From positions 5,920,001 through 5,984,000 of the forward strand of contig OZ242214.1 of the NCBI GenBank assembly GCA_965206595.1: 64,000 nucleotides of DNA, in the 5' to 3' direction. This document shows positions 1-3,206 of this stretch, one piece after another (position 1 is the stretch's first letter; each line of letters opens with the position of its first letter). The notes below the pieces were generated by a model. It had not been told where the DNA came from and made no database searches. It saw nothing but the letters and a program-made list of their open reading frames with translations. Source of the DNA: Candidatus Latescibacterota bacterium (GTDB lineage: Bacteria; Latescibacterota; UBA2968; UBA8231). A program made the translations under genes and the position numbers.

Positions 1-119
1 CGGCATGCCATTGGCTGGGCAGCCCCGGGCCGCGCTTCCGGTTGGATCGAGGGGCTCCGGCGAGTAGGTTATGGGCCCACGGAGCAGCGCGGTTTCGCGC
101 TTTTTCGAAAGGATCAGCG

Positions 120-587
120 ATGACCGACCAGGTGACGGCAGAGGACATTCTCGCAGCAAAGGGAGGCGATCTCCTCAGCGTCTCGGAGGACGCGACCATC
201 GGGGAAGCGCTCGAGGTCATGGTCGGGGGCAAGGTGGGATCCATTCTGGTAAGGGAGGGCAGCCGCATCGTCGGCATCTACACGGAACGGGATCTCATGC
301 GCAACTCCATCGACGCCGGTTTCGACCCGGGGAAGTCGCGCATCGGGGATCACATGAGCCGCGGCCTCAAGTTTGCTCCCCACACCGACACCGCCTACGA
401 GCTGATGGACAAGTTCCTCGGGTTGCGGATCAGGCATCTCCTGATCGACAAGAACGACCAGTTCATCGGGCTGCTGTCGGTCGGGGACGTCATCAAGGCG
501 GCCCTGCAGGCGCGCACCGACGAACTGGAAGAGCTCGAGGCGATCGCCAAGTGGGAGTACTACGAGGAATGGAAGCCCCGCCGTTGA
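120..587 (+). CDS. CBS-domain protein (tandem CBS pair)
   Basis: MTDQVTAEDILAAKGG...GIYTERDL...IRHLLI...GLLSVGDVIK are typical CBS-pair motifs; ATG at 120 follows AAAGGA. Confidence 0.85.
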   Translation: MTDQVTAEDILAAKGGDLLSVSEDATIGEALEVMVGGKVGSILVREGSRIVGIYTERDLMRNSIDAGFDPGKSRIGDHMSRGLKFAPHTDTAYELMDKFLGLRIRHLLIDKNDQFIGLLSVGDVIKAALQARTDELEELEAIAKWEYYEEWKPRR

Positions 588-602
588 GGCCGGGCAGACT
601 TC

Positions 603-1223
603 ATGCCGAGAATTGAGGTCATCCCGGTGGAGCGCGCGACCGGCGCGCTCAAGACCGAGTACGACAAGGCGATCGGCCGCGCCGGGCGGGTGTGGAACAT
701 CGTCGGCGTCATGAGCTGCAATCCCGCGGTCCTGCGGGATTCGATCAAACTCTACGGCAGCGTGATGCACGGGCCGTCGCCGCTGACCCGCAGGCAGCGG
801 GAGATGCTGGCCGTCGTCGTCTCGGCGCGCAATCACTGTGTCTACTGAACCCGCTCCCACGCCCACGATCTCCGGGAAGAGATCGCAGCGTCCGATGACA
901 TGAGCGCCGCCGAAGCGGACGCCTTCGTTCACGCGATTGCGCGCGACTGGCGAAGCGCCGGGCTCGGCACGCAGGATCGCGAGCTGTGCGGGTTCGCCGA
1001 GCGCCTCACCGACGATTCGGAAGGGGTGGACGATGGGGGCATAGCCGCCCTGCGCCGCTGCGGCCTCGACGACCGCGCCATCCACGATGCGACGCAGGTA
1101 GTGGCGTATTTCAACTACATCAACCGCGTCGCCTCCGCCCTCGGGGTGGAGCAGGAGACCTTCGCGCGCGCCTGGGAGCAGGCGGATGCCGGGAGCGGCT
1201 CGGACGGAGAGGGAAGCGCGTGA
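603..1223 (+). CDS. AhpD/carboxymuconolactone decarboxylase-like peroxidase, probable selenoprotein (UGA 846-848 read as Sec)
   Basis: ORFs 603-848 and 900-1223 are in one frame with no other stop; read-through gives REMLAVVVSARNHCVY-U-TRSHAHDL, matching AhpD NxCxYCxxxH; C-terminal part has the AhpD tail (VVAYFNYINRVASALGV). Confidence 0.85.
849..890 (+). promoter_or_regulatory. Putative bacterial SECIS hairpin
   Basis: Perfect stem CGATCTC (866-872)/GAGATCG (879-885), loop CGGGAA with G at loop position 2, 24 nt after the UGA; lower CGC/GCG pairing possible. Confidence 0.7.
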
Positions 1224-1969
1224 GCTGGTCGCAAGAGGAGCTCCGGTCCTACCGGGACCGCGGCTACGCCCTGTGCCGCGGCCTTCTGTCTTCTGCTGAG
1301 GTGACGAATCTGCGGGAAGCGCTGCCGCGGCTGCTGAATGGCGAAGGGGACGGCATGCACCGCGAGCGGGAGCGCGGCGGTGCGGTGCGGCAGGTCTACC
1401 TCGCACACCGCCATGTCGGTGCGTTCTCCGAGGTTGTCCGCCACTCCGCGATTCTCGAACCGGTGAAACAGATCGTCGTCGGCGACGTGTACGTCTGGCA
1501 CAGCAAGCTCAACGTCAAGGAGGCGTTCGAGGGCACCGTATGGCTGTGGCACCAGGACTACGGCTACTGGATGTGGGACGGCGTCGATCCCCGCCTGGTG
1601 TCGGCGATGGTCATCCTCGACAGGTCAACGGCGAACAACGGCTGCATGATGGTGGTCGCCGGCTCTCACAAGTGGGGCCGCCAGGAGCATTTCGCCGACG
1701 AGGAGACGACGAGCTACAAGCAGTGGTGCATCGATACCGAAACCCTCAAGACCAAGCTGCGCGAGGAGCAAATCCAGCAGATCACCGGCGAACCGGGAGA
1801 CGTGCTGTTCTTCGACTGCAATCTCGTGCACGGCTCCGGGCACAACATGTCCCCCCTTCCGCGCAAGGTATTCATCATCGCCTACAACTCCGTCGACAAC
1901 AGGCCGCGGCCGGTGGAGAACCCGCGGCCCGACTGGGTGGTGTCGCGCACGTACGACCCTGTTGGATAG
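1220..1969 (+). CDS. Phytanoyl-CoA dioxygenase (PhyH) family Fe(II)/2OG oxygenase
   Basis: WHQDYGYW HxD motif, GDVLFFDCNLVHGSGHN distal His; GTG overlaps upstream stop (GTGA). Confidence 0.85.
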   Translation: MSWSQEELRSYRDRGYALCRGLLSSAEVTNLREALPRLLNGEGDGMHRERERGGAVRQVYLAHRHVGAFSEVVRHSAILEPVKQIVVGDVYVWHSKLNVKEAFEGTVWLWHQDYGYWMWDGVDPRLVSAMVILDRSTANNGCMMVVAGSHKWGRQEHFADEETTSYKQWCIDTETLKTKLREEQIQQITGEPGDVLFFDCNLVHGSGHNMSPLPRKVFIIAYNSVDNRPRPVENPRPDWVVSRTYDPVG

Positions 1970-2120: not shown

Positions 2121-3206
2121 ATGACGGCGTCGGGCGACTGGTCCCGGCTCGCTTCCTTCGACGTGGTGCGGCTCAACTCCGAGCTGTTCCCGGTGGGCGG
2201 CCTCGAGGCGGATCTCTACGAGCGCTTCGGGCTGCGGCCCCGGGAGGTCGAAGCCAACACCCCCGAGACGATCATCCCGCACGTAGCGGAATGCGACGCC
2301 CTGTTCGCCGTGTCGGTCGCCCTTCCCCGCGAAGTGATCGACAGCCTGCGAAACTGCCGGCTGATATCCCGCCTCGGCACCGGCACCGACAAGATCGACG
2401 TCGCCCGCGCCACCGAGCGCGGCATCGTCGTCTCCAACGTTCCGGAGTTCGGGGTCGAGGACATGGCCGACCACACCATGGCGATGGTCCTGTCGCTGCA
2501 GCGGCGGCTGCCCTGGATGCACCGCCGGATGCTGCGGGGAGAATTTTTTGCCGCCCGCAGCGAGACCCTGACCATTCGGCGGCCGGGGGAGTGCGTGCTC
2601 GGCCTGGTCGGGTTCGGGGCCAGCGCCAGGGCGGTGGTGGCGCGGGCGCTGCCGTTCGGATTCCGCCTGCTGGCGACGCGCCGGAACATGCAGGCGCCGA
2701 CGGACGAGGCGGACCGGCTGCAGGTGCGGATGGTCGATCTTCCGACACTGCTGCGGGAGTCGGATTACGTGTCGCTCCATCTGCCGCTCGATGCCGGCTC
2801 CTACCACCTCCTCAACGAGGCGGCCATCGCCCTGATGAAGCCGGGGGCCTTCCTCGTAAACACCTCGCGGGGGGCGATCGTCGACGAGCGGGCGCTCGCC
2901 GCGGCCCTGCGTGAGGGCCGCCTGGCAGGGGCAGGGATCGACACCTTCGAGGGGGTTGAAATTTTCACCCCTGACGAGCGCCCCCCCGACCACCCGCTCG
3001 TCGGGCTCGACAACGTCATCCTGAGCCCGCACGTCTCCGGTCTGTCGCGGGCAGCGGAGCGCACCTGCGCGAACAGCGGCGTGCGCAATCTCGTCTGCGC
3101 GCTGAGCGGCTGTCTTCCCCCCGCCGGCAACATCGTCAACCGGTCGGTGGTTCCCCGGGTGCCGCTGGCCCCGTACGATCCGGGCCTGTTCGACCATGTC
3201 TGGTGA
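2121..3206 (+). CDS. D-isomer-specific 2-hydroxyacid dehydrogenase
   Basis: GTGTDKID, LGLVGFG, SDYVSLHLPL, FLVNTSRG, VILSPH motifs. Confidence 0.85.
   Translation: MTASGDWSRLASFDVVRLNSELFPVGGLEADLYERFGLRPREVEANTPETIIPHVAECDALFAVSVALPREVIDSLRNCRLISRLGTGTDKIDVARATERGIVVSNVPEFGVEDMADHTMAMVLSLQRRLPWMHRRMLRGEFFAARSETLTIRRPGECVLGLVGFGASARAVVARALPFGFRLLATRRNMQAPTDEADRLQVRMVDLPTLLRESDYVSLHLPLDAGSYHLLNEAAIALMKPGAFLVNTSRGAIVDERALAAALREGRLAGAGIDTFEGVEIFTPDERPPDHPLVGLDNVILSPHVSGLSRAAERTCANSGVRNLVCALSGCLPPAGNIVNRSVVPRVPLAPYDPGLFDHVW

Follow-up and report, generated by a model that had tools for sequence, protein, structure and literature searches.

A gene for a predicted CxxU AhpD-like selenoprotein, split at its UGA codon by standard gene calling, in Candidatus Latescibacterota

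We describe a single gene of Candidatus Latescibacterota that encodes an AhpD-like selenoprotein of the CxxU type with 206 residues, and we are highly confident that the UGA at 846–848, within this gene, is decoded as selenocysteine (Sec). All positions refer to the window, i.e. the whole stretch of 64,000 nucleotides of DNA that was analysed. The gene is one unit and a member of a described protein family, its UGA is conserved, a hairpin in its coding sequence is under selection as RNA, and the machinery for Sec decoding is present in the same genome. A preliminary description of the locus had proposed one CxxU AhpD-like selenoprotein gene with an in-gene SECIS element, and this is supported by the family match, the conserved UGA, the hairpin, and the Sec machinery. 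The features of the locus are as follows.

117–587, plus strand: upstream gene, coding for a protein with paired CBS domains and separated from the selenoprotein gene by 15 nt.
603–1223, plus strand: complete AhpD-like selenoprotein gene, 206 residues by read-through translation, including the terminal TGA at 1221–1223.
801–860, plus strand: active-site segment, with E67 at 801–803, C79 at 837–839, Y81 at 843–845, U82 at 846–848, and H86 at 858–860.
846–848, plus strand: in-frame UGA, predicted Sec, U82 at the second position of the redox motif C79-V-Y-U82.
866–885, plus strand: core of a predicted bacterial SECIS element, a 7-bp stem (866–872 with 879–885) and a 6-nt apical loop (873–878).
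1220–1969, plus strand: PhyH-family Fe(II)/2-oxoglutarate dioxygenase, separate from the selenoprotein (Pfam PhyH, 132.5 bits).
2121–3206, plus strand: downstream gene for a D-isomer-specific 2-hydroxyacid dehydrogenase.

The reading frame from 603 to 1223 comprises 206 codons and its sole interruption is the TGA at 846–848. An ORF listing with translation table 11 consequently contains two entries in the same frame, 603–848 (81 aa) and 900–1223 (107 aa). This bears out two earlier statements: that the two ORFs are one frame split by this TGA only, with read-through giving 206 residues, and that automated annotation would split the gene. The codon is found in the context AAT CAC TGT GTC TAC TGA ACC CGC TCC CAC, corresponding to N-H-C-V-Y-*-T-R-S-H, and the N-terminus of the read-through protein, MP.I, is conserved among homologs.

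The read-through protein scores 122 bits against the NCBIfam model TIGR01926 (peroxid_rel, “peroxidase-related enzyme”, AhpD-like), the cut-off of which is 81.8. Because the match runs over residues 3–184 (positions 2–175 of the 178 positions of the model), the residues on both flanks of the UGA are TIGR01926 protein. The Pfam match is to CMD (carboxymuconolactone decarboxylase fold). The closest PDB chain is the AhpD of 6k40 (E 5.5e-24, residues 7–182 aligned), which we take to be the AhpD-like protein DR_1765 of Deinococcus radiodurans, and the AhpD-like chains of 6k40, 2oyo, and 3c1l align over almost the full length, so that the fold is already fixed by homology to solved structures. The CVYU of the read-through protein is matched by CVYC, CLYC, and CYYC in 6k40, 2oyo, and 3c1l; since the CxYC of these chains and the Cys of the Cys-form homologs align with it, the TGA does fall on the second Cys of the AhpD motif, as had been claimed. 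E67, C79, Y81, and H86 are invariant in an alignment of 24 sequences, and F170, N171, and R175, which are encoded 3´ of the UGA, are invariant across the family.

The proton-relay set of AhpD proteins (Glu, Cys, His or Tyr, Cys, His) is present in the read-through protein. Its residues are spaced as E-x11-C-x-Y-C-x3-H, identical to the relay Glu36, Cys48, Tyr50, Cys51, and His55 of PA0269, and the relay of Mycobacterium tuberculosis AhpD is the same except that His replaces Tyr, as given in the PA0269 literature (PMC3141380). The five-residue relay is thus common to these proteins and the gene described here, which belongs to another subfamily and has no adjacent ahpC that we could see. Canonical AhpD (TIGR00777) was rejected as an assignment, the score of 21.4 bits being far under the cut-off of 191.95. 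A second candidate, NF041238 (AhpD_rel_CFYUT), has a C-x-Y-U-T motif (CVYUT here) and the AhpD core in common with the read-through protein; it was likewise rejected, the match being partial, restricted to the C-terminal part of a model of 357 positions, and below the cut-off (66.8 versus 175 bits).

Codon 82 is TGA in 11 of 11 loci from the own genome and 10 relatives, at 53–100% identity. The same is true for 80 out of 80 loci in species-representative genomes (L046 and L112 among these), a sample biased toward the Sec-form clade because it was chosen as the best-scoring 80 of 590 relatives. In the 91-row alignment of orthologous loci, the columns T, G, and A are invariant (91/91), a count that inflates the number of independent events because some loci come from close kin and a few are duplicates, leaving 87 distinct rows. 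TGA is also present in two loci of a more distant subfamily (L035 and L036), and three distant homologs (L034, L038, and L041) have TGC or TGT. Among the best 120 database matches, position 82 is occupied by Cys in 44, Trp in 18, and Gly in one, the Trp and Gly entries being gene calls in which TGA was translated as a sense codon; in a further 46, which are fragments, the match only sets in at query residues 83–85, and the rest begin later (7), stop just before position 82 (1), or are odd (3; L, D, or a gap). The Cys that the preliminary description expected at the UGA position in AhpD/CMD homologs is accordingly found, both in the 44 matches and in PDB 6k40, 2oyo, and 3c1l. A decayed copy was observed in one relative (G031:C1:4191748–4192238), where the gene lies in pieces (L037, L042, and L043) with a TAA and frame changes, and where CVY-TGA-IRAH is still visible; this genome retains selA.

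Downstream of the UGA, CGATCTC (866–872) pairs perfectly with GAGATCG (879–885) around the loop CGGGAA (873–878), in a stretch that codes for H88-D-L-R-E-E-I-A95. The stem begins 17 nt and the apical loop 24 nt past the TGA; the earlier account of a perfect 7-bp hairpin with this loop is correct, and the distance of 24 nt that it gave applies to the loop and not to the stem. Published rules for bacterial SECIS elements, as they appear in a recent review, are a loop of 3–9 nt with an upper stem of 4–16 bp, a G at loop position 1 or 2, with G or U as the usual next base, a spacing of 16–37 nt from the UGA to the apical loop, and a minimum free energy not above -7.5 kcal/mol (PMC13188914). The hairpin agrees with all four, having a 6-nt loop on a 7-bp stem, a loop that starts C-G-G, a spacing of 24 nt (849–872), and a folding energy of -8.4 kcal/mol when the 20 nt of the hairpin are folded on their own and of -14.5 kcal/mol over 846–900.

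By itself, the hairpin is weak evidence. The fold of 840–910 is not distinctive when compared with shuffled sequences (z = -0.15) in this G+C-rich DNA, and an equally good SECIS-like hairpin, meaning one of at least 7 bp that lies at SECIS distance and has a G near the start of its loop, follows 22 of the 1493 TGA trinucleotides of the window (1.5%). An Rfam scan of 780–980 gave no match at E <= 10, which may be because the bacterial SECIS of the AhpD-like family is without an Rfam model. The case for it rests on conservation, on covariation, and on synonymous sites that are frozen. Across the 87 distinct rows, 97.5% of the cells in the hairpin are paired. Pair 869–882 is CG in 72 rows, UA in 12, UG in three, and unpaired in none, pair 870–881 is CG in 86 and UA in one, and the outermost pair, 866–885, is weaker, with 12 rows unpaired. 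The covariation score was matched in none of 500 shuffles, and slid controls reach only 21–44% pairing. The 12 rows with U-A at 869–882 carry record titles from several lineages, which suggests that this state arose repeatedly.

Codon usage was compared in 90 genes, 88 of them distinct. Leu90 is encoded by CTC in 85 of 87, whereas other conserved Leu codons have a normalised entropy of 0.71–0.83, and Glu93 is GAG in 87 of 88; by contrast, Glu67 is split 51/37 and Glu185 48/40. Arg91 is exclusively CGT (48) or CGG (40) and never CGC or CGA in the 88 genes, whereas CGC is the commonest Arg codon at other conserved Arg sites. Since loop positions 1–3 come from the Arg91 codon, the loop invariably opens with C-G-(G/U), which is the published bSECIS pattern. 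The six conserved codons within 88–95 have a mean normalised entropy of 0.41, compared with 0.80 for the 81 other conserved codons, and only two of 84 six-codon windows are equally low. Nucleotide conservation in this region is partly protein-driven because the downstream peptide HDLRxEV is itself conserved. As judged from this comparison of sequences, the hairpin at 866–885 is selected as RNA and is a predicted SECIS element. An 18-nt core, GAYCUC-CGK...-GAGRUY, is shared by records labelled Latescibacterota, Chloroflexota, Gemmatimonadota, Planctomycetota, Actinomycetota, and Acidobacteriota.

A hairpin of different sequence was observed in the more distant subfamily. The Cys-form locus L034 (genome G040; TGC) keeps the hairpin ACGCAGA / GTT / TCTGCGT of the TGA-form loci L035 (G038) and L036 (G034). 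This suggests that Sec was recently exchanged for Cys or, alternatively, that the hairpin is a consequence of the peptide HAEFLRR.

The full Sec machinery, for which the preliminary description had advised a search of the genome, was found in the same 7.05-Mb genome: selA (539 bits), selB (338 bits), and selD (368 bits), all above their cut-offs, together with a tRNA-Sec (71.6 bits) that ARAGORN calls as tRNA-SeC(tca), i.e. tRNA-Sec(UCA). A selA above the cut-off is present in each of the 13 genomes that carry an intact TGA form, but also in 55 of the 61 genomes searched, and the presence of selA is therefore uninformative on whether a genome carries the TGA form. The selD gene of the own genome lies outside the window (G000:C1:6566458–6567381, minus strand) and itself contains a TGA in frame (TCG-U-AAK); a 7-bp hairpin, CGAGCCC / GGTC / GGGCTCG, lies 17 nt past this TGA. 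This gene is an internal positive control.

The UGA could conceivably be read through without Sec, either in a code that assigns it to Trp or Gly (codes 4 or 25) or by a near-cognate tRNA inserting Cys or Trp, and the W or G at position 82 in public calls of the nearest homologs (18 and one, respectively) is what such a reading would predict. These calls come from contigs of about 1 kb, however, where the caller may choose the wrong code. In the window itself, TGA closes both the upstream CBS gene (585–587) and the selenoprotein gene (1221–1223), and by a crude count more of the long open frames (at least 250 codons) end in TGA than in either of the other stop codons (43 of 87). With tRNA-Sec, selA, selB, and selD in the genome and a structured element under selection at SECIS distance from the codon, we consider this explanation very improbable.

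A Sec codon is also favoured over a dead gene, in which a Cys codon (TGC or TGT) has been mutated or mis-sequenced to TGA. Such a change requires one base only, and a degraded copy of the gene is found in one relative. However, none of the 91 loci, which extend to protein identities as low as about 50%, departs from TGA at this codon, and the frame downstream of it is open and conserved; past the UGA, F170, N171, and R175 do not vary within the family. Contigs from three other studies span 846–848 without any difference, so the TGA is not an assembly error. On the sequence evidence, the reading as a pseudogene or an error is already contradicted, and we regard it as less probable still than decoding as another amino acid. 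The last alternative, that two small genes of 81 and 107 aa act as a split AhpD-like protein, could appeal to the table-11 calls and to the 46 database entries that are C-terminal fragments, but can be dismissed as the least probable of all because these fragments begin directly after the UGA (query residues 83–85) without a conserved start, 849–899 between the ORFs is conserved coding sequence with H86 and the hairpin, and no Cys-form or solved homolog is split.

The intact selenoprotein gene may also be transcribed. A 188-nt contig from an RNA (metatranscriptome) library of a sponge metagenome spans 770–957 and has no difference at 846–848; its three differences (827, 830, and 839) are all at third codon positions and all synonymous. 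Cover from this library is absent at 468–535 and beyond 977, and since RNA libraries can contain DNA, the contig is not proof of transcription but a weak hint of it. In contigs from other metagenome runs, we observed a jump in depth at 1110–1144 on the plus strand of the window, 35 nt that encode the conserved segment YFNYINR. The contigs stacked here stem from other organisms and are unlike the window on either side beyond this segment; because homologs cross-map, the peak is not a feature of the own genome.

AhpD-like selenoproteins are catalogued since 2005. CxxU proteins of COG2128 were first described in the Sargasso Sea selenoproteome (27 sequences; PMC1088965), the GOS study lists 299 sequences under “AhpD-like 1” (PMC2398784), and the family serves as the browsing example of a 2026 database paper (PMC13326102). 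The earlier statement that such proteins are known from marine metagenomes is in line with the first two of these. The term “hidden selenoprotein” is appropriate with respect to gene callers but not to the family, as a table in a 2026 review already has an entry “AhpD-like protein, TIGR01926, CxxU” (PMC13188914). The gene described here is a further member of this known family (COG2128/TIGR01926). It has the same model above cut-off, CxxU with Sec as the second residue, an in-gene SECIS just downstream, and Cys-form homologs that are widespread. Nothing essential differs; here, the gene is found in a 7-Mb genome with relatives of the same family in Candidatus Latescibacterota, and the overlap with the PhyH gene is a local peculiarity. 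The AhpD-like protein of D. radiodurans differs in having Cys instead of Sec (NRCVYC...SH in 6k40 compared with NHCVYU...SH here) and no SECIS. A mutant of D. radiodurans without its AhpD-like protein is H2O2-sensitive, according to a review (PMC8945050).

The gene product is probably a thiol/selenol oxidoreductase of the AhpD-like, TIGR01926 “peroxidase-related” family. In the proposed mechanism, the hairpin at 866–885 would recruit SelB carrying Sec-tRNA(UCA), such that the UGA at 846–848 is decoded as Sec. We infer the actual insertion of Sec, as well as the substrate and the reductant, from the features described above. Sec82 would then replace the second Cys of the CxxC within the relay of Glu67, Cys79, Tyr81, and His86. 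In M. tuberculosis AhpD, the nucleophile is the second Cys. By the chemistry proposed here, the Sec82 selenolate would attack a peroxide or an oxidised cysteine of a partner, Cys79 would resolve the adduct to give an intramolecular selenenylsulfide, and a cellular dithiol reductant, of the lipoamide or thioredoxin type, would reduce the latter.

The GTGA overlap between the selenoprotein and PhyH genes is present as claimed, with the GTG start of PhyH (1220–1222) placed on the TGA stop of the selenoprotein (1221–1223). The PhyH gene resembles ectoine hydroxylase (TIGR02408) at 153 bits, below the cut-off of 336.5. In the genus, the selenoprotein might be translationally coupled to the dioxygenase and form a new pair with it, removing peroxide by-products or keeping the dioxygenase reduced. 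We consider this improbable. The proposed functional link, in which the selenoprotein protects PhyH from peroxide, is unsupported because adjacency to PhyH is confined to one of the 90 other loci, the nearest genome, which has the same overlap; the genus has a third genome, and neither there nor at the remaining 88 loci is PhyH next to the gene. Two of the three genomes in the genus thus have the pairing, which is absent from all other loci compared. The 2-hydroxyacid dehydrogenase is a neighbour in the nearest genome only, and CBS in five of the 90 loci. To find operon partners, all ORFs of at least 90 aa from the 90 loci were clustered, disregarding clusters made up of parts of the selenoprotein gene or of frames antisense to it. 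No widely conserved neighbour was found among these loci. The largest cluster, an Ada-like AraC/methyltransferase, is confined to a single clade, in which it covers 12 loci. The remaining ones correspond to a Vut_1 transporter, an ABC ATPase, an MmeI-type enzyme, and a ParA-like ATPase, and none of the neighbour clusters from the 90 loci is a redox-related gene.

In conclusion, the gene carries a practical lesson for annotation, as standard ORF calling splits it at the Sec codon. In public protein collections, its relatives are misrepresented in three ways: some entries have Trp or Gly at the UGA, others are fragments starting directly behind it, and others again are N-terminal stubs. The entries P0002–P0010, P0017, P0019–P0021, P0023–P0027, and P0030 in our set of matches, together with the 46 short entries, are systematically wrong gene calls at this codon. 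For a lineage that uses Sec, the gene adds one further predicted redox selenoprotein. The comparative data also provide a clear view of how an in-gene SECIS constrains a protein, the 18-nt core fixing the peptide H-D-L-R-x-E-V/I and, in addition, the synonymous codons by which it is encoded.
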